Source of the DNA: a virus
Lineage: Duplodnaviria > Caudoviricetes
Length of the DNA stretch: 64,000 nt
Virus record (IMG/VR): IMGVR_UViG_3300037467_001298
Coordinates: 4,174-68,173 of that record
Reading direction: 5' to 3' (one strand)
In this document: piece after piece, positions 2,613 through 24,717 of the stretch
Layout of the letters: each line of letters begins with the position of its first letter
Position numbering within the stretch: position 1 is the first letter of the stretch
Program-made: the position numbers and the translations under genes
Notes under the pieces: model-generated
The model's input: only the letters and a program-made list of their open reading frames with translations
Databases searched by the model: none
Told to the model about the DNA's origin: nothing

Positions 2613-3113
2613 ATGAAAAATGATTTTATAATTCTTATTGGTTCTGATGGAAGTGGTAAATCAACAATAGCCGAGGCATTATCTAATGAACTTGGCTATC
2701 CTGTTGAACACCATGGACCTGTTAAATCATACCAAGAAGGAAAAGATGAATATTTTAAAAACATTCTTGATATTGAGTATTCAGTTATCAAAGATCGTTT
2801 CCATGAAGGTGAAAAAATATATGCTCCAATTTATCGTGGATACGAGGCAGATTATTTTGGTGAACTTGAATATTTATTACAATTAAAATTTAATCCTTTG
2901 CTTGTTTTAATTAGACCACCATTTAAAGTTATTGAACAGAGGTTAGAAGAACGTGGTGAGGATTTTGTAAAACAAGAACATTGGTTTTATTGTTATTTAA
3001 AACTAAATGACATCTATAATCAGTCTAATCTTCCAAAAATAACTATTGATACAAGTGTATATACTGCTGAAGAAAATGTTAAAAAAATAATCAATGCTTT
3101 AGGTTTACATTAA
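2613..3113 (+). CDS. P-loop deoxynucleoside monophosphate kinase (thymidylate-kinase-like)
   Basis: Walker A GSDGSGKST, DRFHEGEKIY (DR motif), lid RLEERGE; lies just upstream of the TS homolog. Confidence 0.8.
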   Translation: MKNDFIILIGSDGSGKSTIAEALSNELGYPVEHHGPVKSYQEGKDEYFKNILDIEYSVIKDRFHEGEKIYAPIYRGYEADYFGELEYLLQLKFNPLLVLIRPPFKVIEQRLEERGEDFVKQEHWFYCYLKLNDIYNQSNLPKITIDTSVYTAEENVKKIINALGLH

Positions 3114-3168
3114 TATTTATTATATATATAATATTTTTGTAATGATAATTTATTTGGAGGTAATAAAA

Positions 3169-3435
3169 ATGAAAGTTATTATGCCCGAGAAAAAACAGTT
3201 CAAATTAAAATTAGGAGATATTCTTCATACAGGTTTTGGTGATATTTACATTGCTTCAAAGTTCACCGATCAAACATTTGCTTGGTTTAATAATAAAGGA
3301 TATTGTGCAAATGGTGTATATAATTCACTTGAGGATTTAGAAAGAGCAAGTCAAAAATATTTTACAGATCCTGAATACACTATTTACAGTTCTGATGACT
3401 ATGATTTACAATTAGTTCCTAAAGGAGTAAAATAA
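3169..3435 (+). CDS. hypothetical protein (dispersed ~90 aa paralog family)
   Basis: GGAGG RBS before ATG 3169; LKLGDIL..G..YI pattern. Confidence 0.75.
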   Translation: MKVIMPEKKQFKLKLGDILHTGFGDIYIASKFTDQTFAWFNNKGYCANGVYNSLEDLERASQKYFTDPEYTIYSSDDYDLQLVPKGVK

Positions 3436-3436
3436 A

Positions 3437-4468
3437 ATGTTTATTATTGAAGGAGAATCATTTGAGGAAGTCTATAAAAAATCAATTATAGAAATTCTTA
3501 AAAATGGTGATGTAGTTGCTCCTCGCGGTTCAGCAACATTTGAATTAGCACCTGCAACTATTGTAATTAAAAACGCTAGAAAATTTTTAACAATGCCAAA
3601 GTTAAGAAAAGGTAATTATACTTTTCAATTAGCAGAAGCATTATGGATGTTACGAGGTTCAAACGACCTTGAAGAAATCGCTCATTATAATAAGGTATGG
3701 CGTAACTTTGAAGATGAAGACGACCCAGGAATTTTAAATGGCGCTTACGGTGAAAGACTTCGTGATTGGGATATGGGTGTAGACCAATTTATTGAGGTTT
3801 ATAATAAATTGAAAAAAGATCCTTATTCACGTCAAGCAGTTGCTATGATTTGGGATCCTGTTAGAGATAATGCCATTCATGAGAATGGGAATTACTCTAA
3901 AGATATCCCTTGTACAAATTACTTCAATTTCCAAATTCGTAATGGTAAACTAAATATGTGGACTGTAATGAGAAGTAATGATTTACACAAAGGGTCTATA
4001 TATGATATTCCAAACTTTATTATTTTCCAACATATTATTGCAGGTTGGTTGGGTGTTGAAGTTGGAAAATATACGCACTCTGCTGCCTCACTTCACATTT
4101 ATGAATCTGATGTAGAAAATTTTATTGATATTTATAATGATAAAGATGATACAGTTGTTTATGATGGTGAAGATTATGGTGACCCAAGAGTTCCACTTTC
4201 TGAATTTAATTTTGTAATGTCTACTATTTCTGTTATTGAATATTCAACAAGACAGGTATTAGATAAAGAAACATTTGATGATTATTTAGAAACTTTATTA
4301 AATGTTATTAGCGATATTAAAAACACTTGGTGGAGATCTGTTGCTGCACAAATTGCTATGTATAATTATAGAAAATTAGGTGCCACTGAAGAAGAATTTA
4401 AGAAATTCTTACCTTTTATTACTAATGAATATAGAAAAAATGTTGAAAAATGGAGGAGTTTAGTATGA
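3437..4468 (+). CDS. thymidylate synthase homolog, predicted dCMP hydroxymethylase-type
   Basis: AEALWML, YGERL, SRQAV, catalytic DIPC, RSNDLHKGSIYD with Asp at the N177-equivalent position, SLHIY. Confidence 0.85.
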   Translation: MFIIEGESFEEVYKKSIIEILKNGDVVAPRGSATFELAPATIVIKNARKFLTMPKLRKGNYTFQLAEALWMLRGSNDLEEIAHYNKVWRNFEDEDDPGILNGAYGERLRDWDMGVDQFIEVYNKLKKDPYSRQAVAMIWDPVRDNAIHENGNYSKDIPCTNYFNFQIRNGKLNMWTVMRSNDLHKGSIYDIPNFIIFQHIIAGWLGVEVGKYTHSAASLHIYESDVENFIDIYNDKDDTVVYDGEDYGDPRVPLSEFNFVMSTISVIEYSTRQVLDKETFDDYLETLLNVISDIKNTWWRSVAAQIAMYNYRKLGATEEEFKKFLPFITNEYRKNVEKWRSLV

Positions 4469-4728
4469 AAATCAGTATAGAACAAATTAGAGGCGAAAAA
4501 CCTAAAACTGAACCTAAACTTGGTCAAATCTATTCTGGTTGCGGTTCTTATTATATTGTATCAAAGGCATATACAAGAAATAATGAAACTCTATATAATC
4601 TAACAAATCTTGAAACTGGTTCACGATGGACAAATGAACTTTCTAAGGATGAATTGGAAGCGGAAATAAATTTCCATAGTTTCAAACTTGTCAATGTAAA
4701 AGAAATAGTAATTAAGGAGGAAATTTAA
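4465..4728 (+). CDS. hypothetical protein (dispersed ~90 aa paralog family)
   Basis: ATGA overlap with TS stop; PKLGQIY..G.YYI...Y.L.NLETG. Confidence 0.75.
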   Translation: MKISIEQIRGEKPKTEPKLGQIYSGCGSYYIVSKAYTRNNETLYNLTNLETGSRWTNELSKDELEAEINFHSFKLVNVKEIVIKEEI

Positions 4729-4731
4729 TTA

Positions 4732-5949
4732 ATGAAGGTACTTGGAGCATTTATTTTTATGGGTTCTGCAACCATTGGCGTAATGAATAATGGTGTAAAG
4801 CCCAACAGAATTTTGGAATTATCAGATGGAATGACACAAGATAATGCTATGCACTTTGTCCATAACTATCCTGAAATTCCTGTTATTGAACCTGCTGTAT
4901 GGGAAAACGATGAATATTTAGAAGAACTTCGTAAAGAGGAATTCGATTTACTGTACGGAAATCCTCCATGTTCGGGATTAAGTTTAGGTGTTCGTGGTGG
5001 GCAATCTCATGAAAAAGGCCCCAACTGTCACCAATATCGCTATATGGAAATTATTAAAAAAGTACAACCTAAAGCATTTATGTATGAGAATGCTCCTACG
5101 TTGATTAGTACAGGAAAACCAATCTTAAATGATTTTATTAAAGGTCTTCCTAATTATAATTTCACTATTATTCGTGAATTTGGTTGCTATCATAATGTTG
5201 CTATGAAGCGTCAAAGAACATTCTTCATTGGATGGCGTAAAGACGTATTTGAAAAAGTTCCTACGCTTCACATGAGTAAAACAGAAAAACCTACAACCGT
5301 TCGTGATATCTTAGGAGATCTTTTCGATGTGCCTGTTGGTCACTCTAATGTATTAAATCACGAGTTAATCCCAGGTCGTCCGTATCAAGACGTAGAATTT
5401 GTTTTTCCTGATGTTCCTTATGTTAAAGGTGGAGAATATACTGTAAACTGGGTAATCTGTAATGAGTATGAAAAGTATGAGCCGCTATTAAAAGAAAAAA
5501 CTAAAAAAGCATTAAAAACTCAATTATTTAAACAAAGAAATGGTTTAGGTTATTGGGATAAATCTTCTCAACGTCCGAATCCTGATAAACAAGCACCATC
5601 AATGACTGGATATGCAAGTTTCATCCATCCTATTCATCACCGTCAATTTACTGTTCGTGAGTACGCTCGTTTAATGGGATATCCCGATACATTTGAAATT
5701 CTTCCGCATAAGGAAGTTGTTCGTCATATGGCTCAAGGAGTACCTGCTCGTTATTTTGAATGGGCATCAGGTGAAGTGCTTGCTGCGTTGCGTGGACAAA
5801 GACATTCTCATCAACAGTTTGAAGATACTCGAGTTATATTCCAACATCATACAAAAGAATTGATGACTGAATTCACAACTGAAGAGTTCTTAAATACATT
5901 AAAAATTGCAGAAGTAAAAAATGAAAAACAACAGAAACTAACGGTTTAA
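4732..5949 (+). CDS. DNA (cytosine-C5) methyltransferase homolog with degenerate motifs I and X
   Basis: Motif IV GNPPCSGLS, VI YENAP, VIII MKRQRTFFIG, IX RQFTVREYARLMGYPD. Motif I reads FIFMGS instead of FxGxG; motif X reads MAQGVP instead of IGNAV. Confidence 0.85.
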   Translation: MKVLGAFIFMGSATIGVMNNGVKPNRILELSDGMTQDNAMHFVHNYPEIPVIEPAVWENDEYLEELRKEEFDLLYGNPPCSGLSLGVRGGQSHEKGPNCHQYRYMEIIKKVQPKAFMYENAPTLISTGKPILNDFIKGLPNYNFTIIREFGCYHNVAMKRQRTFFIGWRKDVFEKVPTLHMSKTEKPTTVRDILGDLFDVPVGHSNVLNHELIPGRPYQDVEFVFPDVPYVKGGEYTVNWVICNEYEKYEPLLKEKTKKALKTQLFKQRNGLGYWDKSSQRPNPDKQAPSMTGYASFIHPIHHRQFTVREYARLMGYPDTFEILPHKEVVRHMAQGVPARYFEWASGEVLAALRGQRHSHQQFEDTRVIFQHHTKELMTEFTTEEFLNTLKIAEVKNEKQQKLTV

Positions 5950-6387: not shown

Positions 6388-6390
6388 TAA

Positions 6391-7105: not shown

Positions 7106-9016
7106 GTGAGTGAAAAACGCGACCAAATAAAGGCACTTACAACGAGAGAACAGTGCCGTGATAAACTTCCAACATGGTTTGGTTCTCGTGAAAATTATCT
7201 TCATGGCTTCCGTGAAGTTTTAGGGAATGCGGTTGATGAAGTTATTAATAACTATAAAAAAGGTATTATAACAATTAAACTTGAAGATGATATGCAAACA
7301 ATTTCAGTATCAGATACAGGAAGGGGAATTCCAATTGACGGTACCACTGACGGTAAGCCTAACTATATTTTACTTTTTGAAACTTTATTTGCTGGAACAA
7401 ACTACGATAACAACGAAAATGGAAAGATTACGGTGGGCACTAATGGAGTCGGTACAACTGTGCTTAATCATACTTCTTGCCTCTTTGAAGTAACATCCTT
7501 CCGAAACGGTAAAAAATCAAAATTAACTTATATAGACGGTGGAAGCAACCAAGGTCTGACTACTGAGACGTGCAAGGACACTTTACACGGTTCTATCTTC
7601 AAATTCAGACTAGATCCTGAAGTTTATACATCTGTTATATATCAGAAGGAAGAAATTGTTGCTATTATAAAACACGTTGCTGCAACTTCAAATCAAATTA
7701 CCTTTAATTTTGATTTTAAAGGAGAACGGGAGACATTTAATTACAATTCACTGTCAGATTACTTCCTAGAAGTAGCCACTGGCCTCACATCTAAGCCGAT
7801 TGTAGGACCTGAAGTTGAATATGACCGTGAAGATGAATTAAATAAAATCGGTATTTTATTTGCTACTGCAAGTGACCCAATTCAAGAATCATTCCTTAAC
7901 TTTAACTGGTTACCTAATAAAGGCTCAATTCATACAGGAATTATTAACGGTGTTAGGTCATTCATTAATAAGGAAGCGCAAGAACAGAAACTAATTGATA
8001 AAAAATCAAATATAACACCCACTGATGTAGAGGATTCAGTAAGTTATGTTTGTTCCTTCCTTTCAACTAATGTTGAATATGCGAACCAAACAAAACTGTC
8101 AACTGATAAAAAATTATACCGTTCATTAGTTAATGAATATGTACAAAGTTTGTTGGAAGCATTCAAGGCTGAACAACCTAAGGAATTTGATAAATTCCTA
8201 AAACATATTGTTCAAGTTAATAAATTCAATAATCGTAATACTGCTGCTAAACAAGCACTAAAAAAGAAATTAAATGAAAGAGCTGATACTTTAACAAACC
8301 GTGTTGAAAAACTTGTTGAGTGTGATAAACATGGTCCTAATGCTGAATTATTTATTGCCGAAGGTGATTCTGCTTTAGGTTCAATCGTTCAGGCCCGTGA
8401 CAGTTTATATCAGGCCGCATATCCATTGAGAGGTAAAATCCTTAACTGTTTAAAAGCCGATTATTTAAAAATATTTGACAATAAGGTTGTTATGGATTTA
8501 ATTAAAGTTATTGGCACAGGAGTTATCGCTGATAAAAAACATAAGGATATTGAAACTTTTGAAATTACTCGTTCTAATTATGGAAAGTATATTATATCAA
8601 CTGATGCCGATGCAGATGGTCAACAAATCTGTTGCTTATTAATAACATTCTTCTATCGTTTAATGAGACCTTTACTTGAACAAGGTATGGTTTATGTTGC
8701 AAAGACACCATTATATGAAGTAAAACTTGAGGATGATTCAATGATTTATTACTTCAGTGAAAAGGAAAAAGATGAAAAACTTCCAAAAGTAAAAGGCAAA
8801 TATGTTATTGCTCGTTGTAAAGGATTAGGTGAACTTGAAGCCGAAACAATGGCATACACTGCAATGGATAAGGATACGCGTGTTCTTGAACGTGTAACTG
8901 TAAATAATGCTGAAGCAATGGTTGCTGCTGTTGAAAAATTCATGGGTGCAGATGTACATGATAGGAAAGAATATATTGAAGAAAATCTTTATAAATATAT
9001 TGCGGCGGTGGATTAA
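7106..9016 (+). CDS. gyrB: type IIA topoisomerase subunit B (GyrB/ParE family)
   Basis: GHKL ATPase EVLGNAVDE, DTGRGIP, GTNGVG; TOPRIM AEGDSA, PLRGKILN, STDADADG; RCKGLGE. GTG start at 7106 follows GGAGGAG. Confidence 0.93.
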   Translation: MSEKRDQIKALTTREQCRDKLPTWFGSRENYLHGFREVLGNAVDEVINNYKKGIITIKLEDDMQTISVSDTGRGIPIDGTTDGKPNYILLFETLFAGTNYDNNENGKITVGTNGVGTTVLNHTSCLFEVTSFRNGKKSKLTYIDGGSNQGLTTETCKDTLHGSIFKFRLDPEVYTSVIYQKEEIVAIIKHVAATSNQITFNFDFKGERETFNYNSLSDYFLEVATGLTSKPIVGPEVEYDREDELNKIGILFATASDPIQESFLNFNWLPNKGSIHTGIINGVRSFINKEAQEQKLIDKKSNITPTDVEDSVSYVCSFLSTNVEYANQTKLSTDKKLYRSLVNEYVQSLLEAFKAEQPKEFDKFLKHIVQVNKFNNRNTAAKQALKKKLNERADTLTNRVEKLVECDKHGPNAELFIAEGDSALGSIVQARDSLYQAAYPLRGKILNCLKADYLKIFDNKVVMDLIKVIGTGVIADKKHKDIETFEITRSNYGKYIISTDADADGQQICCLLITFFYRLMRPLLEQGMVYVAKTPLYEVKLEDDSMIYYFSEKEKDEKLPKVKGKYVIARCKGLGELEAETMAYTAMDKDTRVLERVTVNNAEAMVAAVEKFMGADVHDRKEYIEENLYKYIAAVD

Positions 9017-9109
9017 ATGTTAAAAGAAATTTTATTAGGAACAGTTTCGGGAGTTATAACATTATTTATTATTTTTTGTGGCCTAATGTATTTTATCTTT
9101 GGTTTATAA
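9017..9109 (+). CDS. 30 aa single-TM micro-protein
   Basis: MLKEILLGTVSGVITLFIIFCGLMYFIFGL, directly abutting the gyrB stop. Confidence 0.5.
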   Translation: MLKEILLGTVSGVITLFIIFCGLMYFIFGL

Positions 9110-9116
9110 TTTCCAT

Positions 9117-9145
9117 TTTACAAATCAAATTTAAAATGTTATAAT
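9117..9145 (+). promoter_or_regulatory. sigmaA-type promoter
   Basis: TTTACA-N17-TATAAT, extended TG. Confidence 0.75.
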
Positions 9146-9178
9146 AAATTATACGATTTAATTGGAGGCGATTTTAGT

Positions 9179-9310
9179 ATGGCAAGACATGGAAGTTATA
9201 ATTGTCCAAATTGTGATTCAACTGAGGTTTTTGTTACATTTGAAGGTAAGTTAGTGTGTAATGACTGTATGTGGATAAGTCCTGAACCTGTTGTTGAGGA
9301 GAAAAAGTAA
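9179..9310 (+). CDS. 43 aa zinc-ribbon protein
   Basis: GGAGG RBS; CPNC...CNDC. Confidence 0.7.
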   Translation: MARHGSYNCPNCDSTEVFVTFEGKLVCNDCMWISPEPVVEEKK

Positions 9311-9423
9311 TGGAACAGTGGAAAGGTGGACCAAAAAGGTTAACAAAAACGGGTGAACATATTTTAGGAATTATAATCGGCTGTATAATTGGTATTGCAG
9401 CTGGTTTTCTTGGAGGAATGTAA
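9310..9423 (+). CDS. 37 aa membrane micro-protein
   Basis: TAATG coupling; ILGIIIGCIIGIAAGFLGG hydrophobic segment; contains the RBS for gyrA. Confidence 0.55.
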   Translation: MEQWKGGPKRLTKTGEHILGIIIGCIIGIAAGFLGGM

Positions 9424-9424
9424 A

Positions 9425-11428
9425 ATGAGTGTTATTAATATTAATGCACAAGATTTAGTACAAGATAACATGATGGACTATGGTGCTTATGTTATATTAC
9501 AACGTGCTATTCCTGATATTCGAGATGGTTTAAAACCTGTTCATAGAAGGATCTTATATACAATGCACCTTGAAAAAGCAACAAAGTTTACAAAAAGTGC
9601 AAATATCGAAGGTGCTGTAATGAAGATTCATCCGCATGGTTCATCTTATGGAACAATTGTAAATATGGCACAGCGTGACAGACAATCAGTTTTATTAATA
9701 AACGGTAAAGGGAACTTTGGTCAAGCAACATCAAGAGATTTAGCATATGCTGCTTCACGTTATACTGAAGTTAAATTATCTGATGTTGGAATTGAAATGA
9801 TGAAGGATCTTAATAAAAATTTAGTTGACTTTGTTCCATCATATGATGGTAAAGCAACAGTTCCTGAAGTACTACCTGTTAAATTTCCTGTGATTTTAAC
9901 ACAAGCATCAAGTGGTGTAGCGTATGGTATGGCTTCATCAATTCCATCCTTTAACCTTAAGGAATTAGTAAATGGAATGATTAAGTTTATTCGTGAAGGT
10001 AAAAAACTTTTACTTGTACCTGATTTTTCTACTAAAGGTTTTATTGTGAATAACCGTGAAGTTTTTCGTAAAATTAATCTAGAAGGTTCAGGCTCAGTTC
10101 AATTAAGAGGTAAGGTTGAAGTTGATGGTTATAATGTTATGATAACTGAAATACCTTACTCAACAACTCGTGAAGCAATAATTGATAAGATTGTTGAATT
10201 ATCTAAGGACAAATTTAAAAACGTTGCTGAAGTTAAAGACCTCACAGATTTAAAAGGTTTAAAGGTGAGAGTAAGATTTAAACGTGGAACTGATATGAAT
10301 ACTGAAGTTGAAAAACTATTTCAGTTAACACCTTTGCAATCTTCGTACAGTACTAATTTGAATGTATTAATAAATGGTTCGCCAAAGAATATGTCAGTAT
10401 GGGAAGTTATTGAAGAATGGTTGAAATGGCGGAAGCAAACTATTCAAAGAGGCGTTCAATTTGATATTAATAAAATGGAAAAAGATCTTCACATATTAAA
10501 AGGTTTAGAAAAGGTATTACTTGACATTGACAAAGCAATTGAAATCATTCGGCATAATGAAGAAAAGTATATAATTCAGTTATTAATGGATTATTTTAAA
10601 ATTGATGAATTACAAGCTAATGAAGTTGCTGATATGAAACTTCGATATATTAACCGTGAATATATCATAAAGAAAATAAAAGATATTGATAATCTTGCTC
10701 ATAAAATTGAGAATTATAAAGATCTTGTACAAAATAATGAGAGATTAGACAATATTATTATTAAGGACCTCGAAGATGTCGCTGAAAAGTATGGTGTTGA
10801 ACGTCAAAGTAAATTACTTGAGGTTAACTCATCAAGGGTAAAGGCTGTTAAAAAGAAAATGGAAGAGGTTCCAAATTATCCTACAAAATTGTTTATAACA
10901 AAAGAAGGATATGTTAAAAAGATGGCAATTCATGCAAACTTTGAGGACCAATATGTCAAACCGGGAGATGAGATTATTAATGAATTTAGTACATGGAATA
11001 AAGCTGAATTACTCGTTTTTGGTAAGGACCGTTGCTGTCACAAAATTAAAGTTTCGGAAATTGAAGAATCAACTAACAAGGCGCTTGGTACCTTTATACC
11101 TAGTCTTTGTGATGTTGATGGTATTGTGGGTTGCTCTGTTTTCGATGAGTCTAATAAGTTTATTATTATCGGTTATGATAACAACAAAATAGCAAAGATA
11201 AACCTAAAATCATTTGAAGGCAATAGGAAAAAACTTCAAAATTCACTTGCGGATAATGCAAGCGTTGTAGGAATACTAACATTTAAAGATGAAGGTAAAT
11301 TTATATTTAAAACGACAACTTCAACATTTAAAGTTCCTACATCAAAATTTGATTTAAAAGAAAGATGGACTAAAGGTACTTACGGTCCTCAGAAAGGTAA
11401 ATTGATTGAAATTAGAATGGCTGATTAA
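9425..11428 (+). CDS. gyrA: type IIA topoisomerase subunit A (GyrA/ParC family)
   Basis: RAIPDIRDGLKPVHRRIL, HPHG, catalytic AASRYTE; likely start ATG 9425 after GGAGG. Confidence 0.93.
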   Translation: MSVININAQDLVQDNMMDYGAYVILQRAIPDIRDGLKPVHRRILYTMHLEKATKFTKSANIEGAVMKIHPHGSSYGTIVNMAQRDRQSVLLINGKGNFGQATSRDLAYAASRYTEVKLSDVGIEMMKDLNKNLVDFVPSYDGKATVPEVLPVKFPVILTQASSGVAYGMASSIPSFNLKELVNGMIKFIREGKKLLLVPDFSTKGFIVNNREVFRKINLEGSGSVQLRGKVEVDGYNVMITEIPYSTTREAIIDKIVELSKDKFKNVAEVKDLTDLKGLKVRVRFKRGTDMNTEVEKLFQLTPLQSSYSTNLNVLINGSPKNMSVWEVIEEWLKWRKQTIQRGVQFDINKMEKDLHILKGLEKVLLDIDKAIEIIRHNEEKYIIQLLMDYFKIDELQANEVADMKLRYINREYIIKKIKDIDNLAHKIENYKDLVQNNERLDNIIIKDLEDVAEKYGVERQSKLLEVNSSRVKAVKKKMEEVPNYPTKLFITKEGYVKKMAIHANFEDQYVKPGDEIINEFSTWNKAELLVFGKDRCCHKIKVSEIEESTNKALGTFIPSLCDVDGIVGCSVFDESNKFIIIGYDNNKIAKINLKSFEGNRKKLQNSLADNASVVGILTFKDEGKFIFKTTTSTFKVPTSKFDLKERWTKGTYGPQKGKLIEIRMAD

Positions 11429-11454
11429 TGCCATTCTTTTTTTTATTTACATTA

Positions 11455-11483
11455 TTTACAATGTATAAAAAATATGTTACAAT
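11455..11483 (+). promoter_or_regulatory. sigmaA-type promoter
   Basis: TTTACA-N17-TACAAT, extended TG. Confidence 0.7.
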
Positions 11484-11523
11484 TATTTTGTGTTAAACAA
11501 ATAGAAATGGAAGGTGTTAAACA

Positions 11524-12213: not shown

Positions 12214-12226
12214 TAATGTAAATGAT

Positions 12227-12247
12227 GGTGTGGAAATATTCCACACC
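12227..12247 (+). terminator. hairpin, possible terminator
   Basis: GGTGTGGAA-ATA-TTCCACACC; weak U-tract. Confidence 0.45.
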
Positions 12248-12253
12248 TTCTGG

Positions 12254-12282
12254 TTTACACCAGAATTTTTATTGTATATAAT
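12254..12282 (+). promoter_or_regulatory. sigmaA-type promoter of dnaE
   Basis: TTTACA-N17-TATAAT. Confidence 0.75.
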
Positions 12283-12324
12283 TATATTGATTTAAAAAAA
12301 TGTTTCCAAAGGAGGATTCTAAGA

Positions 12325-16432: not shown

Positions 16433-16461
16433 TTTACATTTTTACATTATTTTTATATAAT
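16433..16461 (+). promoter_or_regulatory. sigmaA-type promoter
   Basis: TTTACA-N17-TATAAT. Confidence 0.75.
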
Positions 16462-16763: not shown

Positions 16764-17156
16764 ATGATAAATACGTTGCAAATGGTACTTGATAAACAAG
16801 CGGAGTTTCAAAAGAAGTTTGGATTTGAAGGATTAGAGCAGACCGATATTGAAACGGTCTCTTCTTTAATCCATACTCATTCACATTTTACAATGGAAGA
16901 ACTTTTTGAAATGGAAAGAGAACTTCCATATCATAAACCCTGGAAAGATTATTCAGGGTTAACTAAATACGAAGTTATAGAAAATTTTCAAAAAGGAAGA
17001 GAAGAATGGATTGATGCTTTTATCTTTCTAATGAATGTTGGGTTATTCTTAGGTTTCGATTCAAAACTAATTGAGCAAATGTATTTAGAAAAACTTGGAA
17101 TAAATCATAAAAGACAAGAAGATCCAAAACTAGGATATATTACGGAGGTAAATTAA
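16764..17156 (+). CDS. all-alpha NTP pyrophosphatase (dimeric dUTPase / T4 gp56 dCTPase-like, MazG superfamily)
   Basis: LDKQAEFQ, MEELFEM, HKPWK, REEWIDAFIFLMNV, KLGINHKRQ. Confidence 0.8.
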   Translation: MINTLQMVLDKQAEFQKKFGFEGLEQTDIETVSSLIHTHSHFTMEELFEMERELPYHKPWKDYSGLTKYEVIENFQKGREEWIDAFIFLMNVGLFLGFDSKLIEQMYLEKLGINHKRQEDPKLGYITEVN

Positions 17157-17554: not shown

Positions 17555-17983
17555 ATGAGGATGAATGTAATGGCTGTTCAAACAGATTTAAGTATTATTA
17601 AGGAAATTATTGAAATGACTTGCGAAGAGAAAGTAAAACTAATATTTGCTGAAAAACCAGGTTGGTTACTGATGAAAACAGCCGATAAAAATAAAGGAAT
17701 TGGTGCTATAAGATTAAATAAAAATTCATTTATTACTTTATATGTTGATACTAATGAAGGTTACTTATTAGAAGATAAAATTACTGAACTTGAAACATTT
17801 AAAGGAAAAATTATTGATATAAATTCAAAGGTAACTGGAAACTTTGTACAAAATAAAATTAAACTTTACAGTGAGGATGCTATTGAATTTGCTATTGAAC
17901 TTATAAATAAAGTATTTAATGAAGGTGCTGTATTTACAGGAAAAAGAATAAGAGTATCAAAAACCGAAACAAGCGTCGCCTAG
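17555..17983 (+). CDS. hypothetical monocistronic protein, possible DUF5655/YjbR-like fold
   Basis: C-terminal KIKLYSEDAIEFAIELINKVF pattern; own promoter and terminator. Confidence 0.65.
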   Translation: MRMNVMAVQTDLSIIKEIIEMTCEEKVKLIFAEKPGWLLMKTADKNKGIGAIRLNKNSFITLYVDTNEGYLLEDKITELETFKGKIIDINSKVTGNFVQNKIKLYSEDAIEFAIELINKVFNEGAVFTGKRIRVSKTETSVA

Positions 17984-17999
17984 GCGGCGTTTTTATTTT
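17972..17999 (+). terminator. intrinsic terminator
   Basis: GCGTCGCC/GGCGGCGT GC-rich stem with TTTTTATTTT. Confidence 0.75.
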
Positions 18000-18160: not shown

Positions 18161-18189
18161 TTTACATATAATTAAAAAGTATATATAAT
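18161..18189 (+). promoter_or_regulatory. sigmaA-type promoter of the kinase-phosphatase-nucleotidyltransferase-GT operon
   Basis: TTTACA-N17-TATAAT. Confidence 0.75.
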
Positions 18190-18216: not shown

Positions 18217-19251
18217 ATGGGTAAAGTCAATATTTTAAAAGAGTTTAAAGGTGGAAGTATGGCAAGAACCTTTTTAGTCGATAAATATGGACAAAAATAT
18301 GTTAGGAAAATTGCGGCCAATGATAAAGATGGGTTAGGTATTGAAAAACTTTATAAGCAATGGAAATGGCAATTTGACTTTTGTAGAAATGATGAACCAG
18401 GAGTTATGCCTGATACTTCATTTTTTGTGTTTGGGAAGGACTCTGGTTACTATGATATGGAATATGTAGAACTTGGTACTTTTCTTGATTTATTACTTAA
18501 TGAGGAAGATATTGATGGAATGATTCTTCATGATATATTAAAAGCAGGGTCATTAATAGCAAAACCTGTAGATGAAGAACCTAAACATGATTATTTATTA
18601 GTTAATCATTTACAAAAAATGGTAAAAAGAACTCAATCACTACAACCTTATGAGTTTTACAAACATGATTCAATTGATATAAATGGAAAGTCATGTCAAA
18701 ATCTTCATAGAATATTAGAGTTTATTGTAAACGAACCTGGGCTAATTAAGTTATTATCACCTAAAAAATTATATAGGTCTCATGGTGATTTTACTTTCCA
18801 AAACATTCTTGCTGATGAATATGATTTGGTTGTAATAGACCCACGTGGTGAAGGTGCTGACTCAATTTATTATGATATTAGCAAACTTTATCAAAGTTGT
18901 CATGGTAAATATGATTTACTTTTTGATGGTAATTATAGAGTTTGGTCAGATGGTTATACTGATGTTATCAATTATGAGATACTTGATGGTGTAGAAAAAT
19001 TCAATGCTATTTATGATGAGCTTCGTGAACTAATACCTCAGTATTATGAAATTGAAGATGAGCATTGGGAATTAATTACAAAATTTTATGAGGCAAGTCA
19101 CTTCATTTCAATGACACCTTTTAGATTAAAAGAAAATGGAAATATAACAGCAGTCTGTTATGCAATTGGTATAGAATTATTAAATGAGGTAGTGGAGGAA
19201 TATTTAAATGTTAAATCTGAACTTAAAAAACAAGAAAGCATTACTATTTGA
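18217..19251 (+). CDS. APH/choline-kinase-fold small-molecule kinase
   Basis: Gly loop KGGSMART, VRK lysine, YDMEYV hinge, HGDFTFQNIL catalytic loop, IDPRG. Confidence 0.85.
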   Translation: MGKVNILKEFKGGSMARTFLVDKYGQKYVRKIAANDKDGLGIEKLYKQWKWQFDFCRNDEPGVMPDTSFFVFGKDSGYYDMEYVELGTFLDLLLNEEDIDGMILHDILKAGSLIAKPVDEEPKHDYLLVNHLQKMVKRTQSLQPYEFYKHDSIDINGKSCQNLHRILEFIVNEPGLIKLLSPKKLYRSHGDFTFQNILADEYDLVVIDPRGEGADSIYYDISKLYQSCHGKYDLLFDGNYRVWSDGYTDVINYEILDGVEKFNAIYDELRELIPQYYEIEDEHWELITKFYEASHFISMTPFRLKENGNITAVCYAIGIELLNEVVEEYLNVKSELKKQESITI

Positions 19252-19813
19252 TGTAGACGGTACTATCGCTGATACAATGCCAGCACATAATAAAGCATAT
19301 GAGTTAGCATTCCATTTAAACAATGTTCCTTTTGATATTGAACTTCATAAAACATATGCCCCTTTTGGTGGTAATGTATTAATGAGGGAAACTGTTGAAG
19401 CAATAGGTTATGGTGCTCAAGCGCATCAAATCATTAAGGATAAACAAGCATTATTGGGTTTTTGTTTAGATAGATTTATGAGACCCAATACTGAACTCAT
19501 TAATTTTATTAAACAAAATGTTGAGAAATATTATATTGCTTTTGTATCAAATGGTCGTAGAACAAGTATTCAACAAGTACTTGAAAAATTAGGTTTATTA
19601 TATTATGCTGATTATATTACAACATCTGATATTTTGGGCGCTGCGAAGCCCTCACCAGAAGCATATAATTATACAATGCTCATGTTAGGTGTTAATCCTG
19701 ATGAAGTAATTACATTTGAGGATAATGAGATTGGTATTACTGCTGCAACTCGTGCTAAAATAAAAGATATTATTAAAGTTAATACGGAGGATTTTAGATT
19801 TGAAAAACTTTAA
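19208..19813 (+). CDS. HAD-superfamily sugar phosphatase/mutase (beta-PGM-like)
   Basis: FDVDGTIADT, FVSNG, AKPSPEAY, FEDNEIG. Confidence 0.92.
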   Translation: MLNLNLKNKKALLFDVDGTIADTMPAHNKAYELAFHLNNVPFDIELHKTYAPFGGNVLMRETVEAIGYGAQAHQIIKDKQALLGFCLDRFMRPNTELINFIKQNVEKYYIAFVSNGRRTSIQQVLEKLGLLYYADYITTSDILGAAKPSPEAYNYTMLMLGVNPDEVITFEDNEIGITAATRAKIKDIIKVNTEDFRFEKL

Positions 19814-20546
19814 AGGTATTATACTCGCAGGTGGTAGAGGATCTCGCCTATCACCTATAACAGATGTATATAATAAATATTTATGTCCTGTTTATGATAA
19901 ACTCATGATAGAATATTCTATCCTATCATTAAAAGATGCAGGAATAACTGATATAGCAATTATTCTTGGTACAAAGTCTGCTGGTGAAACAATGGACTAT
20001 CTCAAATCAGGTAAAAAATATGGTGTTAAATTTACATATTTTTATCAGGATGAGCCGCTGGGAGTTCCGAATGCTCTGTATCAGGCTAAAGATTGGGCTG
20101 GACTAACTAACGTAGTTGTATTGTGCGCTGATAATATTATTTATGATAATTTAATGCCATTCTTAGAAATGTATAAAGGCGGAGGTTTTATTACAACTAA
20201 ATTCTTTAATGATAAAGAGGAACTAAAGAGATTCGCTGTGCTAGAGTTTGATGAAGATTTAAGTATTAATAAAATTGTAGAAAAACCTGAAAACCCTAAA
20301 TCCTCCCTAGCATTTTGTGGGATACAAATATACGATTTACAATTATGGTCAATTATTAAAGGACTGGAACCTTCTAGACGCGGTGAATATGAAATTGTGG
20401 ATGTATTAAATGAATATATTAATCGTAAAAAGTTTAGTTATGGAACATTAACCAAACAATGGTTCGACTGTGGCAATAAGGATGCTTTGTTTGAAGCACA
20501 ACAATATGCTTTCTTTAATTCGATTGAGGAGGCCCTAAACAAATGA
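19800..20546 (+). CDS. sugar-1-phosphate nucleotidyltransferase (RmlA/SpsI-like)
   Basis: GIILAGGRGSRLSPIT..NK, QDEPLG, ADNI, VEKP, PSRRGEYEIVD, WFDCG; TTG start. Confidence 0.92.
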   Translation: MKNFKGIILAGGRGSRLSPITDVYNKYLCPVYDKLMIEYSILSLKDAGITDIAIILGTKSAGETMDYLKSGKKYGVKFTYFYQDEPLGVPNALYQAKDWAGLTNVVVLCADNIIYDNLMPFLEMYKGGGFITTKFFNDKEELKRFAVLEFDEDLSINKIVEKPENPKSSLAFCGIQIYDLQLWSIIKGLEPSRRGEYEIVDVLNEYINRKKFSYGTLTKQWFDCGNKDALFEAQQYAFFNSIEEALNK

Positions 20547-21994
20547 CCTATCAAATTATTAATTCCCATAAAGACAACCCTAATAAAAAGAATATTATGT
20601 TATTCTTGCTCGAGAGAAATCTCGGCAAGAAAACTAATTTCTTGTCATATTCATATATACTTAATACTGTTAAAATTTTACAAAAAGATTTCAATGTTTT
20701 CCTCGTTGCCCGTTCATCAAGTTCAAGAGGCGCCTGGATAGAGGTAGCATTACAAACACCTATTTTGAAAGACTGTATACTTATTAATCTTGATGCTTCA
20801 GGAAGGTTTATGAGAGTTGAAACAGGCGAACAGGAGTTATATGATGATGATAAAGCCGCATACAATTATACTTATAAGTATATGGATACTTTGTTTACTA
20901 ACCTCATTCATGGTGAGCCATGGATATTTAATAATCTCGTTGGCACTATTTCTTCTGCTCTTTTTCTTGTATATGAAAGGAATCACGAAATTATACCATA
21001 CGATGAAAGAACTGAAAAACTCTCAGCAGGAGCCATGGAAACAGCCCGTAAACGACTTACAGGGGAACGTCAATTCTTCTCGTTCCGAATGATTAGTCAG
21101 AGATGTATGTATCCTTTATACTTCCTCACAAGACTTATGAGGGACTATCCAAATTTATGGCATTACTCATTCTGTCACGATACTAGCTCAATATGGTACC
21201 CATGGTCTGCTAAGGTAAATCCTCTTACAAAAAATGTTAAATGTTTTTACTTTGTAAATGATGATAGAGGACCTATGAGGGATTTTAAAGAATTCCCATC
21301 TGCGCAGATTCAAGATGCCTTTGGTAAAAAACAATTGACAAAGGATGAGTTAAATGATATTCTCAATAATAAAAAACATGATTTTATCTTTGGCGGAACT
21401 TTTCCTTATGATGTTAGTTACCGCTTGGCGGATTGGGTACGTTATTTTAATGACCTTAATTGTGATGCTACTATTCGTACTCAAACTGATGGTACTTCCA
21501 CTATTACTTGTACAGAGATTAAGGATCCACTCGAAACAAAGAAATTCAAAGGTAAAAAGATAAAAGATGAAAAGGCGTTAGATGTTATTAGAAGTATTTC
21601 TGTCAATAAGAATGTTAAACCTACTGTATCTCAACAAGAGTATCACGAGGAACAAAAGGATTATATGTTTACAATTATTTTAAAATGCTTTTATGGTAAG
21701 TATGATTCTTTAAACTTTAGGATTTATTCTTCATTAGCAAATGGCGTTATTCCTTTATTAGCTAATGACTATGATGTTGATTGCCTTCAAATTCCGTTAT
21801 TATTTAAACAACTATTAACGGTTAGAGATAATATTGATATTGAAGAAAAGATTGAATATTATAAAAATAACCCTGAAAAATATAAGGAACTATTTTGGGC
21901 ACTCTATAATCACTATGTAAAGCCTGAACACTATCAAAATGAGTGGTATGAAAAAGTGTTCAAAGAAAATTATTTTAATGAATTATATAAATAA
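20543..21994 (+). CDS. GT-B glycosyltransferase, T4 beta-glucosyltransferase-like (GT1)
   Basis: KKHDFIFGGTF resembles T4 BGT KTLDVIYGGSF; LNFRIYSSLANGVIPLLANDYD resembles ITLRVWETMASDAVMLIDEEFD; final helices IEEKIEYYKNNPEKYKEL. By-eye alignment. Confidence 0.65.
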   Translation: MTYQIINSHKDNPNKKNIMLFLLERNLGKKTNFLSYSYILNTVKILQKDFNVFLVARSSSSRGAWIEVALQTPILKDCILINLDASGRFMRVETGEQELYDDDKAAYNYTYKYMDTLFTNLIHGEPWIFNNLVGTISSALFLVYERNHEIIPYDERTEKLSAGAMETARKRLTGERQFFSFRMISQRCMYPLYFLTRLMRDYPNLWHYSFCHDTSSIWYPWSAKVNPLTKNVKCFYFVNDDRGPMRDFKEFPSAQIQDAFGKKQLTKDELNDILNNKKHDFIFGGTFPYDVSYRLADWVRYFNDLNCDATIRTQTDGTSTITCTEIKDPLETKKFKGKKIKDEKALDVIRSISVNKNVKPTVSQQEYHEEQKDYMFTIILKCFYGKYDSLNFRIYSSLANGVIPLLANDYDVDCLQIPLLFKQLLTVRDNIDIEEKIEYYKNNPEKYKELFWALYNHYVKPEHYQNEWYEKVFKENYFNELYK

Positions 21995-22010
21995 AAAGAA
22001 TTTTATATGG

Positions 22011-22039
22011 TTTACGAAAACACATTACATATATATAAT
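22011..22039 (+). promoter_or_regulatory. sigmaA-type promoter
   Basis: TTTACG-N17-TATAAT. Confidence 0.65.
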
Positions 22040-22082
22040 TGTAATGTGTTTTTTAATTTATTAATTGAATGGAGGTATTATT

Positions 22083-22739
22083 ATGAGCAGTTTGGAAAAA
22101 TATAATATTATTAAATCAGATGAGGAAACACCAGATGGGATAAGTGAAAAAACATTCGGTTATGTAGAAGGTAAAAAGGTTTTGATTAAAACAGATTATA
22201 GGCCGACTGAGATACTTGCAGAATACTTTGCATACAAATTAGGTGAAGCATTAGAAATTCCTGTTAACAAAGTCAAATTAATTGATTGTGGCACACTTTT
22301 AGGTTTAAAAAATAACCTGTGTTCAGTTCACTGGTGGGAAGAATGTTTTATTGATTCTGCAGATTATGTAGGAATTGAAGAGCAAAAAGATTTAGATATG
22401 ATGAAGTTCTTTGACGCTATAATTGGAAATGATGATAGGCACCATCATAATTATGGGTTTATAGATGATTGTATATTCTTAATTGACCACGGTCTATCAT
22501 ATCCTTGGAAAAGTTTTTATTCTGAAAACATTAATGACCTTCATCAAACATGGCATAAAGTACCTGAAATTACAAATAAATTTTTATCTTTAACAGAAGA
22601 TAATTTTAGAAAAATGTTAGAACTTCCAGATGATTTAGAACATAATATACCTGATGGAAAATTCAATAAAATTGTAGAAAGAATGTTTGAAGCACAAGAT
22701 ATTTTAAAGGAGGCAATAGCAAATGCAAACGCAGCCTAA
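22083..22739 (+). CDS. HipA-like / PI3K-like kinase
   Basis: VLIK, AEYFAYKLGEALEIP, DAIIGNDDRHHHNY, LIDHG; ATG 22083 after GGAGG. Confidence 0.8.
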   Translation: MSSLEKYNIIKSDEETPDGISEKTFGYVEGKKVLIKTDYRPTEILAEYFAYKLGEALEIPVNKVKLIDCGTLLGLKNNLCSVHWWEECFIDSADYVGIEEQKDLDMMKFFDAIIGNDDRHHHNYGFIDDCIFLIDHGLSYPWKSFYSENINDLHQTWHKVPEITNKFLSLTEDNFRKMLELPDDLEHNIPDGKFNKIVERMFEAQDILKEAIANANAA

Positions 22740-22749
22740 TAATATACCA

Positions 22750-22778
22750 TTTACAATTTTCATAATTTAATATATAAT
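22750..22778 (+). promoter_or_regulatory. sigmaA-type promoter
   Basis: TTTACA-N17-TATAAT. Confidence 0.7.
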
Positions 22779-22784
22779 TAAATT

Positions 22785-23513
22785 ATGGAGGTGTTTAATT
22801 TGGAATATGGGTTTATTTATATTACAACTAACAATATTAATAATAAAAAATATATTGGCAAATGTAAATATAAACCAGGTAGTAAAAATTACTTAGGTTC
22901 AGGCTTACATTTGAAACGTGCTATTAATAAATATGGAAAAGAAAACTTTTCAAGAGATATTATTGATACTGCTAAAAATGAAAATGAATTAAATAAAAAA
23001 GAAAAGTATTGGATTGATTTTTATAATGCTATACATTCTGATAATTTTTATAATATAGCAGAAGGTGGGCATGGTGGTAATACATTAGCTGGGAAAACAG
23101 AAGAGGAATTAAAACAATTTGGCGAAATTATAAGTAATGCAAATAAAGGAAGAAAATGGTCGGATGAAAGCAAACTTAATAGAAGTAAAGAAAGGAAAGG
23201 CAAATTTACAGGTAAAGACCATCATATGTTTGGTAAAAAACTTTCTGACGAACAAAAAAAGAAAATTAGTAATAAAGTAAAAGGTGGTAAGAATCCATCA
23301 GCAAAGAAAGTTTATATTTATAAAGGTAGTGAATTAATAAAAGTTTGTAATACTTTTGATGAGACAGTTCATTGGTTTTATAAACAATATCGTGCTTATT
23401 CTCTTACTACAAGTAATAAATTAATAAGAAATTTAAGAAAAAGTGGTGGTACTTGTATTAAAACAGGATTAAGTTTTAGTGATAAAAAATTAGGAGGTAT
23501 TAACAATGAGTAG
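22785..23513 (+). mobile_element. free-standing GIY-YIG homing endonuclease with NUMOD3-like repeats
   Basis: GFIY...KKYIG, YLGSG, ELNKKEKYWI, YNIAEGG, HHMFGKKLSDEQKKKIS. Confidence 0.88.
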
Positions 23514-24717
23514 GGTTGGCTTCGGGAAAATGGGCCGTTCAATATATTTTGATAGAAAAAAATGGAAAGAAAATGCGGGAAATAATGAAGCACCAATATT
23601 AATAAGTGCCATTGCAAAACTTCAACCTAATACTACTTACTATTTAATTGGTAAATCTGATTTCAGTAGGGTGTCAGATGATATTAGGAAAGAATGGTTT
23701 CCACATAATAATGTAATTGATTGTTGGAAAGATTTCAATCCTAAGCAACACGACCCAACAACATGGATTTGGGAACAGTTAAAAAATAAAAATTTAGATT
23801 ATTGTATAATTCACGGTGGGATGGCTTCTCTAAGTATACCAAATAAAATATATTGCTTAGATAGAAAAACAAAAAAACCTGACTACTCAAAACTAAGACA
23901 ACCTCTTGCATCACTTGTTAATTATTGCTCACCAATAACATATTTTTTAAATGAGTCAAAAATAGATTGGTTAACAATTACATCAGATGGAAGGTATATG
24001 CCTCTACCTGCTCGCGATTTAATTAATCCTGAGAAAATTAGTTTGGGTGTTAGAGAAGGTGTTGTAGAAATCGAACGAATGAAATCCTATGAGGACCAAG
24101 AAACAATGGTTAAGCATAAAGTAGATTTACGTTACGCTGCTGCCGAATTTCAATATTTACTTGATCCTAAATTCAGCACATTTAGGTATAACGAGGAAAA
24201 AACTCAAAAAGTTGGTTTATTCTTTCATCAATATGATAATAAAAAACGTGTAGCTGCAATTCAAGATATTATTGAGCAATTTGGTGAAGATGAAATTGCA
24301 GTATATGGAAAATGGGAATTAGCAGGTCATGATAAAAGGTATAAAGGTCCTGTGAACTTTGAAGAATTACAAGATATTTTACCTTCTGTTAAATATACTT
24401 TCTGCTATCCTATAATTCCTAATGACTTTTCAGGTAAATGGGTTGAAAGTGTTCGAGCTGGTATAATTCCGTTCTTCCATTCAACTTATGGTGATAGGAA
24501 AATAATGTCAAGATATGATAAATCATTTGAGTGGCTTTATGTTGATAATGGACAAGAAATGAAACAAAAGATAGAATATCTTGAACAAAATCCTACAGCG
24601 TATTATAGGATGAAAAATTTACTTATATCAACAGTTAGTCGTTTCCCTAAAAATGGCGCCTCATTTGTTAATGCAATAAACAAAGCAGTAAAAGACATGA
24701 AAGGTATGAGAAAATAA
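23506..24717 (+). CDS. GT-B glycosyltransferase, T4 beta-glucosyltransferase-like (GT2)
   Basis: N-terminal RVGFGKMG...NNEAPILISAI resembles BGT KIAIINMG...SSETIYLFKVI; YKGPVNFEEL, FSGKWVESVRAGIIPFF, LYVDNGQEMKQKIEYLEQNP resemble the BGT C-terminus. By-eye alignment. Confidence 0.65.
   Translation: MSRVGFGKMGRSIYFDRKKWKENAGNNEAPILISAIAKLQPNTTYYLIGKSDFSRVSDDIRKEWFPHNNVIDCWKDFNPKQHDPTTWIWEQLKNKNLDYCIIHGGMASLSIPNKIYCLDRKTKKPDYSKLRQPLASLVNYCSPITYFLNESKIDWLTITSDGRYMPLPARDLINPEKISLGVREGVVEIERMKSYEDQETMVKHKVDLRYAAAEFQYLLDPKFSTFRYNEEKTQKVGLFFHQYDNKKRVAAIQDIIEQFGEDEIAVYGKWELAGHDKRYKGPVNFEELQDILPSVKYTFCYPIIPNDFSGKWVESVRAGIIPFFHSTYGDRKIMSRYDKSFEWLYVDNGQEMKQKIEYLEQNPTAYYRMKNLLISTVSRFPKNGASFVNAINKAVKDMKGMRK

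Follow-up and report, generated by a model that had tools for sequence, protein, structure and literature searches.

Gene content of the locus

The window analysed here is a 64,000-nucleotide stretch of viral DNA comprising bases 4174-68173 of the linear IMG/VR record IMGVR_UViG_3300037467_001298 (record length 68,173), and it carries a group of early genes predicted to direct the synthesis of glycosylated 5-hydroxymethylcytosine (5hmC) in the DNA of a phage. An original prediction, made from the letters alone, had proposed that these genes encode a new sugar hypermodification of cytosine. All of the open reading frames (ORFs) that it listed are present at the positions given below, and their family assignments survived testing. 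The genes of main interest are the following, with thymidylate synthase abbreviated to TS, methyltransferase to MTase, nucleotidylyltransferase to NTase and glycosyltransferase to GT:

2613..3113, plus strand: P-loop dNMP kinase-like protein, 166 aa, beside the TS homolog (phrog_761 'thymidylate kinase', 1.8e-18)
3437..4468, plus strand: TS homolog, 343 aa, with dCMP hydroxymethylase signature (PF00303, 1.7e-29)
4732..5949, plus strand: C5-cytosine MTase-like protein, 405 aa, member of a distinct subfamily found in phages (PF00145, 3.8e-23, 82.9 bits, cut-off 22)
12325, plus strand: Pol III alpha, the phage polymerase, in the early arm
16764..17156, plus strand: all-alpha NTP pyrophosphatase, 130 aa, candidate dCTPase (PHROG families)
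18217..19251, plus strand: APH/protein-kinase-fold small-molecule kinase, 344 aa (motifs and weak APH matches)
19208..19813, plus strand: HAD-IA hydrolase, 201 aa (PF00702, 3.2e-23; HAD_2, 2.5e-21)
19800..20546, plus strand: RmlA-like sugar-1-phosphate NTase, 248 aa (PF00483, 2.7e-45)
20543..21994, plus strand: GT1, BGT-like GT-B glycosyltransferase, 483 aa (AlphaFold (AF2) model, pLDDT 88.4)
23506..24717, plus strand: GT2, BGT-like GT-B glycosyltransferase, 403 aa (AF2 model, pLDDT 93.8)
26191..26709, plus strand: canonical trimeric dUTPase (Dut), 172 aa (NF010561, 4.3e-46; TIGR00576, 3.1e-21)

Nucleotide-level genes: TS homolog, dNMP kinase and pyrophosphatase

Residues of the TS homolog were read from alignments with E. 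coli ThyA, T4 gp42, RB69 gp48 and SPO1 gp29. In E. coli ThyA numbering, Cys146, Glu58 and Asp169 are kept, L143 and N177 are both replaced by Asp, and positions 167 and 126 are Ser and Arg; the aspartate typical of dCMP enzymes, which had been claimed for this protein, was thus found as N177D. The pattern C146/143D/169D/177D/S167/R126 is identical to that of T4 gp42 and differs from those of SPO1 gp29 (177N), RB69 gp48 (169N) and MilA (Ala/Lys at 167/126). N177D, which selects cytosine over uracil, is shared by the TS homolog, T4 gp42, Bacillus phage G and the cultured Enterococcus phage Planchet, while SPO1 gp29 has Asn. Published work ties N177D to the choice of cytosine and acidity at position 143 to non-methyl products, with L143 to Asp or Glu giving water access and hence hydroxymethyl over methyl, and it treats D169N as the mark of 5-hydroxy-dCMP synthases (PMC13326640); Ser167 and Arg126 mark deoxyribonucleotide users, as opposed to the Ala/Lys of MilA (PMC5175136). 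D169N, as found in enzymes of the RB69 gp48 type, is absent here. Because the TS homolog has the T4 gp42 active-site signature, its product is predicted to be 5-hydroxymethyl-dCMP (5hm-dCMP) and not 5-hydroxy-dCMP, dTMP or hydroxymethyl-CMP.

The best PDB match of the TS homolog was the CMP hydroxymethylase MilA (4.5e-26), and among phage proteins it was closest to phage G gp319 (42% identity) and to dUMP hydroxymethylases from SPO1-like phages (SPO1 gp29, 35%). The protein bears a C-terminal extension of ~110 aa. No second TS homolog, no ThyX and no dCMP deaminase was found in the 68-kb record. The adjacent dNMP kinase, which the original prediction had also recognised and which showed weak Pfam dNK and Thymidylate_kin matches in addition to phrog_761, is predicted to phosphorylate 5hm-dCMP. 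The pairing of a TS homolog with such a kinase also occurs in phage G (gp315), in Planchet and in the related sequences L010, L011, L017 and L020.

The presence of an all-alpha pyrophosphatase besides a normal trimeric dUTPase was likewise confirmed. The pyrophosphatase matches phrog_18650 (3.2e-13), phrog_173 (5.9e-11) and phrog_12184 (5.6e-5), which are the same three families that the T4 dCTPase gp56 matches, and its Pfam dUTPase_2 score is sub-threshold (19.5 bits versus a cut-off of 22.9). It is conserved in the sister contigs L007 and L008. BLASTP against the 'dUTPase' of Planchet gave no match, and phmmer against the PDB yielded nothing usable.

Sugar-activation genes

As had been proposed, the kinase, HAD and NTase genes appear to form an operon, which is translationally coupled to GT1. 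Their reading frames overlap by 44 nt (kinase/HAD) and 14 nt (HAD/NTase), the NTase and GT1 frames overlap by 4 nt, and the four genes lie as one run behind a single promoter-like site, TTTACA-17-TATAAT at 18161, which is itself preceded by a terminator-like hairpin (17971-17992). Sites of this sequence (11/12 matches) recur on the plus strand at 16433, 18161, 22750 and 24826, in intergenic positions before early genes.

The HGDxxxQN and IDPRG motifs of the 18217 kinase are invariant in 33 homologs, 16 of which gave weak APH matches, and its neighbours in a structure atlas carry APH. A phmmer search of the PDB with the protein gave nothing usable, and the family profile found no solved structure there. 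In the APH-fold sugar kinases that have been characterised (NahK, AmgK, MtnK, maltokinase, AfhE) the anomeric carbon is the site of phosphorylation, and because of this the window genes would specify a route from a sugar or sugar phosphate through a sugar-1-phosphate to a nucleoside diphosphate (NDP)-sugar, with the 18217 protein as a predicted sugar (anomeric) kinase.

The best NCBIfam model of the HAD protein is the beta-phosphoglucomutase family, at 83 bits and under the cut-off; the protein is a predicted sugar-phosphate phosphatase, or possibly a mutase. Its identification as beta-phosphoglucomutase itself was dropped, as the score lies far under the cut-off and such an enzyme would leave the kinase redundant. 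For the NTase, TIGR01208 (rmlA_long) scored 175.9 bits against a cut-off of 320 and TIGR01207 159 against 361, so that by these profiles the fold family is clear and the RmlA equivalog level is not reached. No epimerase, dehydratase or aminotransferase was found near the sugar genes, and a plain NDP-hexose, possibly NDP-glucose, is therefore the simplest product. The suggestion in the original prediction of a non-glucose sugar found no backing: nothing shows it to be other than glucose, and the tailoring enzymes that could alter it are absent.

The same trio is found in phage G (gp311-309; 46-60% identity) and in L024, with an AGT-like gene directly after it. In L008, Planchet and L023 the trio is replaced by a fused NTase-kinase of 534-543 aa, accompanied in L008 and Planchet by a small capless HAD. 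This fused protein and small HAD represent the AfhF/AfhE architecture of UDP-arabinose synthesis in phages with 5-hydroxycytosine (5hoC) (PMC13326640). Planchet PLANC_62 (L009 12353-13984), annotated 'Glycosyltransferase', consists of an N-terminal nucleotidyltransferase and a kinase-like domain (EcKL/fructosamine kinase matches), and PLANC_63 (L009 12012-12356), which bears the annotation 'Polynucleotide kinase', is in fact a HAD phosphatase of small size; the two are thus a putative AfhE/AfhF-like sugar-activation pair. The occurrence of two alternative sugar cassettes at the same locus in sister genomes suggests sugar diversity inside one phage clade.

Glycosyltransferases GT1 and GT2

The AF2 models of GT1 and GT2 were built on alignments of 22 and 38 homologs, respectively. 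T4 BGT was the best solved match for both models, in agreement with the claim that two BGT-like GT-B proteins are encoded. GT1 matched T4 BGT with Z 18.3-19.2 over 307-316 aligned residues (chain 1-351; next family 15.7), and GT2 with Z 22.5-23.0 over 304-317 aligned residues (chain 1-351; rmsd 3.6-4.1; next 18.8), so that T4 BGT leads every other GT-B structure by 3.5-4 Z. BshA, T4 AGT and the DNA transferase of HY126 all scored under T4 BGT. Teichoic-acid and surface glycosyltransferases, which had been named in advance as the competing match, are not the nearest structures: TarM reached Z 15.3 versus 19.2 for BGT with GT1, and 17.0 versus 23.0 with GT2.

At the sequence level, hhalign paired the GT2 family with the C-domain of BGT at a probability of only 84%; in this weak pairing BGT R195, R269 and E272, which we take to be UDP-binding residues, correspond to R248, K311 and E314 conserved in the GT2 family, and Arg191 corresponds to an Asp; the comparison covered GT2. 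GT1 matches the GT2-family HMM at 1.9e-9, and the two proteins are therefore regarded as distant paralogs. Searches of phages with GT1 by tblastn gave no match, BLASTP comparison of each of the two GTs with phage G gp306 and with T4 BGT gave nothing significant, and phmmer of both against the PDB yielded nothing usable. No hydrophobic or membrane segment was found in GT1, GT2 or the other pathway proteins.

GT2-family genes lie within clusters that contain a TS homolog with 177D in Planchet, L016, L017/18 and L023. The last of these, a 256-kb marine T4-like contig, has the gene order SIS, ribulose-phosphate epimerase, fused NTase-APH and then the GT2-family gene, and in another T4-like contig, L022, a GT1-family gene adjoins an AGT (PF11440) gene. 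This genomic context supports DNA as the likely acceptor of GT1 and GT2. A sugar addition in two steps, also put forward in the original prediction, is possible, but GT1 is missing from the sister contig L007.

Proposed pathway

The phage probably makes glycosylated 5hmC DNA by a T4-type, pre-replicative replacement of cytosine. In the proposed pathway, the all-alpha pyrophosphatase (16764) would cleave dCTP/dCDP to dCMP, and the TS homolog (3437), as its active-site residues indicate, would use methylene-tetrahydrofolate to convert dCMP to 5hm-dCMP. The 2613 kinase would phosphorylate 5hm-dCMP, after which an NDP kinase of the host and the phage's own Pol III alpha (12325) would place 5hmC in DNA. 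In parallel, the APH-fold kinase would phosphorylate a hexose, or a hexose phosphate, at its anomeric carbon, the HAD phosphatase would strip the distal phosphate either ahead of this phosphorylation or after it, and the RmlA-like enzyme would form a dTDP- or UDP-hexose, most simply NDP-glucose. GT1 and GT2, whose modelled fold and genomic context point to such an acceptor, would then glycosylate duplex 5hmC after replication, and the glycosyl-5hmC DNA should be resistant to host restriction enzymes.

The logic of this pathway, including the NDP-sugar made by the phage itself, fits every computational test that was run. All of its genes lie within the replication and nucleotide-metabolism arm, and GT2-family, GT1-family and trio genes adjoin TS homologs, AGT or TAGT genes in Planchet, L016, L017, L020, L022, L023, L024 and phage G. 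The clustering of these genes is not due to chance: they recur side by side in phage G, in the sister contigs and in phages unrelated to them.

Several points weigh against this pathway. GT1 and GT2 have no significant match to a Pfam DNA glycosyltransferase family, only a sub-threshold one to Glyco_trans_1_2, and a counterpart of the BGT catalytic Asp100 was not located (no residue-level superposition was made). The dCTP/dCDP specificity of the pyrophosphatase is a candidate one, taken from family membership alone, and the 18217 kinase is assigned tentatively by motifs and weak profile matches only. The HAD and NTase proteins fall under the NCBIfam equivalog cut-offs. A C5-MTase-like gene is unexpected if cytosine is fully replaced. 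The record is estimated to be ~77% complete. Lastly, literature searches turned up no chemical analysis of the DNA of phage G, of Denvervirus phages or of another Bacillota phage that carries the module.

The MTase-like protein and the extent of cytosine replacement

The MTase-like protein had been described as a C5-MTase homolog with a broken S-adenosylmethionine (SAM) motif. Its membership of PF00145 and the alteration of motifs I and X hold; the word 'broken' is an interpretation, as the motif II Glu is kept and relatives read PLIGG. The catalytic motifs are preserved (IV, GNPPCSGLS with its Pro-Cys; VI, ENAPTL; VIII, RQRTF with its RxR), but the canonical FxGxGG of motif I is replaced by F-I-F-M-G-S and the GNAVP of motif X by QGVP. 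Across the subfamily motif I is (F/V)(I/V)F-x-G-S, motif X is QGVP and almost every member keeps the Glu of motif II, while the nearest generic relatives read PLIGG, also without the first Gly of motif I, and QNVP. The SAM pocket is thus altered in a subfamily-specific way. An exhaustive HMMER search of 1.84 billion representatives found 31 clusters of the subfamily at E<=1e-30, followed by a drop to generic C5-methylases.

The protein is 47-48% identical to phage G gp301, and a locus search with the MTase-like alignment returned phage G only. Members of the subfamily adjoin a TS homolog in L014/15 and a GT2-family gene in L016. In a 164-kb PolB phage (L017/18) the gene belongs to a cluster with GT2-family, PIG-L, WbqC, Tmk and TS genes, and in L020 to one with dNMP kinase, AGT, TAGT, GLF and TS genes; in L023 a PLIGG-clade member follows the GT2-family gene. 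The contexts in L019 and L021 were uninformative, and a predicted complex of the MTase-like protein with GT2 scored 0.00, which argues neither for nor against an interaction. By conserved association the MTase-like protein would belong to the system. That this subfamily recurs in TS and DNA-glycosyltransferase clusters of unrelated phages is a new lead, and since cultured carriers exist, its partnership with the TS-dependent clusters is directly testable.

Three of these relatives deserve separate description. In L017 (164-kb ENA contig, PolB phage), positions 7965-14645 encode an MTase-like protein, a 164-aa ORF, a GT2-family GT, a PIG-L deacetylase, Methyltransf_25, WbqC, a Tmk-like protein and a TS homolog with 177D, which suggests a different, possibly amino-sugar, cytosine hypermodification. 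In L020 (22.7-kb ENA contig), positions 7489-14159 encode a dNMP kinase-like protein, an MTase-like protein, AGT (PF11440), TAGT (PF20691), UDP-galactopyranose mutase, a TS homolog with 143D/169D/177D and a dUTPase/DCD-like protein; this cluster may specify a galactofuranose-containing glycan on 5hmC. The MTase-like member at L019 236-1423 matches its database protein only when TGA is read as Trp, which points to a carrier that uses genetic code 4.

A C5-methylase would have no obvious substrate in DNA in which all cytosine is hydroxymethylated, so either replacement is incomplete and the residual cytosine is covered by this enzyme, or the protein has another role. The first option, in which replacement is partial and an ordinary SAM-dependent methylase acts on leftover cytosine to give a mixture of glycosyl-5hmC and 5-methylcytosine (5mC), is compatible with the glycosyl-5hmC pathway and is a serious if somewhat doubtful possibility. 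The kept catalytic Cys, ENA Glu and RxR, the nearly invariant Glu of motif II, which binds the SAM ribose, and the recurrence of the gene in TS and GT clusters all favour it; moreover, the PLIGG/QNVP sister clade also lacks the first motif I Gly, and this change alone need not abolish SAM binding. However, both SAM-pocket motifs are changed (GG to GS, QNVP to QGVP), and the gp56-like pyrophosphatase suggests that dCTP is removed. Rather unlikely, by our estimate, is a more novel outcome, in which the subfamily is not a methylase and directs its Cys/Glu machinery at 5hmC or glycosyl-5hmC, or uses a cofactor other than SAM, to give an undescribed cytosine derivative in these Gram-positive phages and in the unrelated ones with the TS, GT and MTase-like triad, or, alternatively, in which the sugar is a non-glucose hexose and the glycosyl-5hmC itself is new.

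Alternative acceptors and products

It is also conceivable that 5hmC DNA is made while the trio, together with GT1, GT2 or both, modifies wall teichoic acid, another surface glycan or a phage protein, where they could serve superinfection exclusion or receptor masking. TarM (at the Z scores given above), GtfC/Gtf3 and BshA are among the structural matches, the GTs have no sequence-level membership of a DNA-glycosyltransferase family, and envelope glycans are the usual use of RmlA-like enzymes. Yet T4 BGT heads the matches of both models over the full chain, genes of the GT1 and GT2 families and of the trio stand beside 177D-type TS, AGT or TAGT genes in unrelated phages, and the proteins are encoded in the early replication arm and carry no membrane segments, which makes a non-DNA acceptor improbable.

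Slightly less probable again is the addition of another C5 group by the TS homolog, which would then make 5-hydroxy-dCMP, like RB69, or 5-methyl-dCMP, like XP12, and lead to glycosyl-5-hydroxycytosine or 5mC. A handful of residues decides whether a TS homolog with N177D yields 5hm-, 5ho- or 5m-dCMP (PMC13326640), and sister contigs and Planchet carry the AfhE/AfhF-like cassette of 5hoC-arabinose phages. On the other side, D169N is absent and position 143 is Asp, as in hydroxymethylases, and not hydrophobic, as in methylating enzymes, although this residue rule was drawn from a limited set of tested enzymes.

Comparison with known systems

The glycosyl-5hmC pathway proposed for the window closely resembles that of T4, in which gp42, gp1, gp56 and the alpha- and beta-glucosyltransferases produce glucosyl-5hmC. 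The enzyme logic and the TS signature 143D/169D/177D are the same, the pyrophosphatase falls into the gp56 PHROG families, and GT1 and GT2 are structurally nearest to T4 BGT. By contrast with T4, the window phage probably has a Gram-positive host and encodes a Pol III alpha, its TS homolog, which carries a C-terminal extension, is of the SPO1 gp29/phage G lineage, and its GTs have no detectable Pfam-level sequence likeness to BGT. Whereas T4 draws on host UDP-glucose, the window phage encodes its own NDP-sugar route; it also has a C5-MTase-like partner, and no analogues of denA, denB or alc were identified.

Most of the genes are orthologous to those of the phage G module gp301-gp319 (NC_023719, 219-235 kb), with identities of 47-48% for the MTase-like protein, 46.5% for the kinase (gp311), 52% for the HAD protein (gp310), 60% for the NTase (gp309), 43% for the dNMP kinase (gp315) and 42% for the TS homolog (gp319), which has the same signature. 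Phage G differs in that its trio is paired with two AGT-like transferases (gp306 and gp313) and not with BGT-like GT1 and GT2, and in that it has a dCMP deaminase and is a 498-kb myovirus. The AGT-like genes of phage G were pointed out in 2018 (PMC6024577) and in 2026 (PMC13216743).

In the arabinosyl-5-hydroxycytosine systems of RB69, DLP3 and HY126, an NDP-sugar is likewise made by the phage through a kinase, a phosphatase and a nucleotidyltransferase, feeds GT-B DNA transferases, and is accompanied by a TS homolog paired with a cognate dNMP kinase (PMC13326640). Among the relatives of the window phage, L008 and Planchet resemble these systems in their fused NTase-kinase and small HAD. The window itself differs, since its TS homolog keeps Asp169, so that 5hmC is predicted over 5hoC, its sugar-activation enzymes come from three separate genes, for a kinase, an NTase and a HAD protein of the capped HAD-IA type that is not GmhB-like, and it has no arabinose-5-phosphate isomerase. 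When the window proteins were compared with the RB69 region by tblastn, only the TS homolog matched, with no likeness to gp51-53 (AfhE/AfhF).

Planchet and the related Enterococcus phage 9183 share with the window the order RecJ, kinase, TS (143D/169D/177D), GT genes and Pol III alpha, together with a GT2 ortholog of 38-39% identity. They differ in having no MTase-like gene in the region, no GT1, a fused sugar cassette, and a trimeric dUTPase/DCD-like gene after TS. The MupP-AmgK-MurU and HldE/GmhB/HldC pathways combine the same classes of HAD phosphatase, kinase and nucleotidyltransferase and make an NDP-sugar without a phosphomutase, with AmgK, like NahK, being an APH-fold anomeric kinase. 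The window proteins nevertheless match MurU (75 bits) and MupP (22.6 bits) far under the cut-off, and RmlA is the better match.

The finding is consequently not categorically new, being T4-like in its working and structurally nearest to T4, with TS, kinase, trio and MTase-like genes orthologous to those of phage G. The claim of a new system and a new modified base was overstated in view of the phage G module, the overlap with Denvervirus, and two further precedents: a metavirome catalogue of TS-associated GT-B clusters whose neighbours include APH phosphotransferases and methyltransferases (bioRxiv 10.1101/2023.12.21.572611), and the self-made NDP-sugars established for RB69, DLP3 and HY126 (PMC13326640).

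To our knowledge, chemical proof of glycosylated 5hmC has come only from phages of Gram-negative hosts. The window, phage G and the cultured Denvervirus phages point to a widespread, predicted glycosyl-5hmC counterpart in phages of Bacillota, some of which are under consideration against vancomycin-resistant E. faecium. If this is true, their DNA would be resistant to many restriction enzymes and Cas nucleases and a target for type IV systems, and its sequencing and cloning would be affected.

The phage and its host

The phage is uncultivated and siphovirus-like, and its full genome would measure about 95 kb. At the DNA level, megablast matched the 22-kb region to none of 50,697 deposited phage records. 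The GC content is ~30%, and the genome has two arms, with early genes on the plus strand up to ~35 kb and late genes following on the minus strand. The early arm also encodes RecJ, GyrB-like and GyrA-like topoisomerase subunits, an ATP-dependent ligase and a sigma factor. By gene order, the nearest cultured relatives are Planchet and 9183 (86 kb; Andrewesvirinae, Denvervirus), with identities of 43% for Pol III alpha, 36% for RecJ and 38-39% for GT2; to the Enterococcus Andrewesvirinae the phage is distantly related. Sister viral contigs of 94-102 kb are 60-77% identical.

Remaining features of the window, including those that bear on the host, are:

17555-17983, plus strand: 142-aa ORF with no family match
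22065..22739, plus strand: HipA_2-like kinase, 224 aa, between GT1 and GT2 (weak Pfam HipA_C; atlas structure TM 0.78 to HipA_2 clusters)
22785..23513, plus strand: GIY-YIG/NUMOD3 homing endonuclease between the GT genes (PF19835, PF07460, PF01541)
25115-25810, plus strand: second GIY-YIG/NUMOD3 homing endonuclease, on the other side of GT2
27499-28116, plus strand: second thymidylate-kinase-like gene (phrog_761, 1.2e-23), adjoining a RusA-like resolvase
34972-35325, plus strand: alpha/beta-type small acid-soluble protein (SASP), 117 aa (PF00269, 2.3e-19)
36090-37067, minus strand: tyrosine recombinase/integrase gene, at the junction of both arms

The SASP gene favours an endospore-forming host; the protein exceeds the 59-position PF00269 domain and thus has a C-terminal extension. 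The stretch is contained in soil and rhizosphere metagenomes, and one 97-kb contig with homologs was binned into a metagenome-assembled genome of Pseudoneobacillus. From these three lines, a reasonable reading is that this is a soil phage whose host is probably an endospore-forming member of the Bacillota. A scan of GTDB genome contigs with a GT2 homolog gave zero matches, and hence no prophage or host link from this source.

The 142-aa ORF, which lies just upstream of the sugar and GT genes and is 48-54% conserved in L007 and L008, could be an unrecognised component of the pathway. The HipA_2-like kinase, although conserved in L007 and L008, is probably not part of the DNA pathway and may perhaps act in host takeover instead of DNA modification. 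A role for it as a 5hmC DNA kinase was rejected, since the 5-hydroxymethyluracil DNA kinases known so far have a P-loop (PMC8989533), whereas this one is of the HipA_2 type. At the site of the endonuclease at 22785, L007 has no endonuclease and L008 has an HNH/NUMOD4 gene instead. As GIY-YIG genes flank GT2 and the contents of this site differ between L007 and L008, the GT cluster appears to be a hot spot for mobile endonucleases, as in T4.

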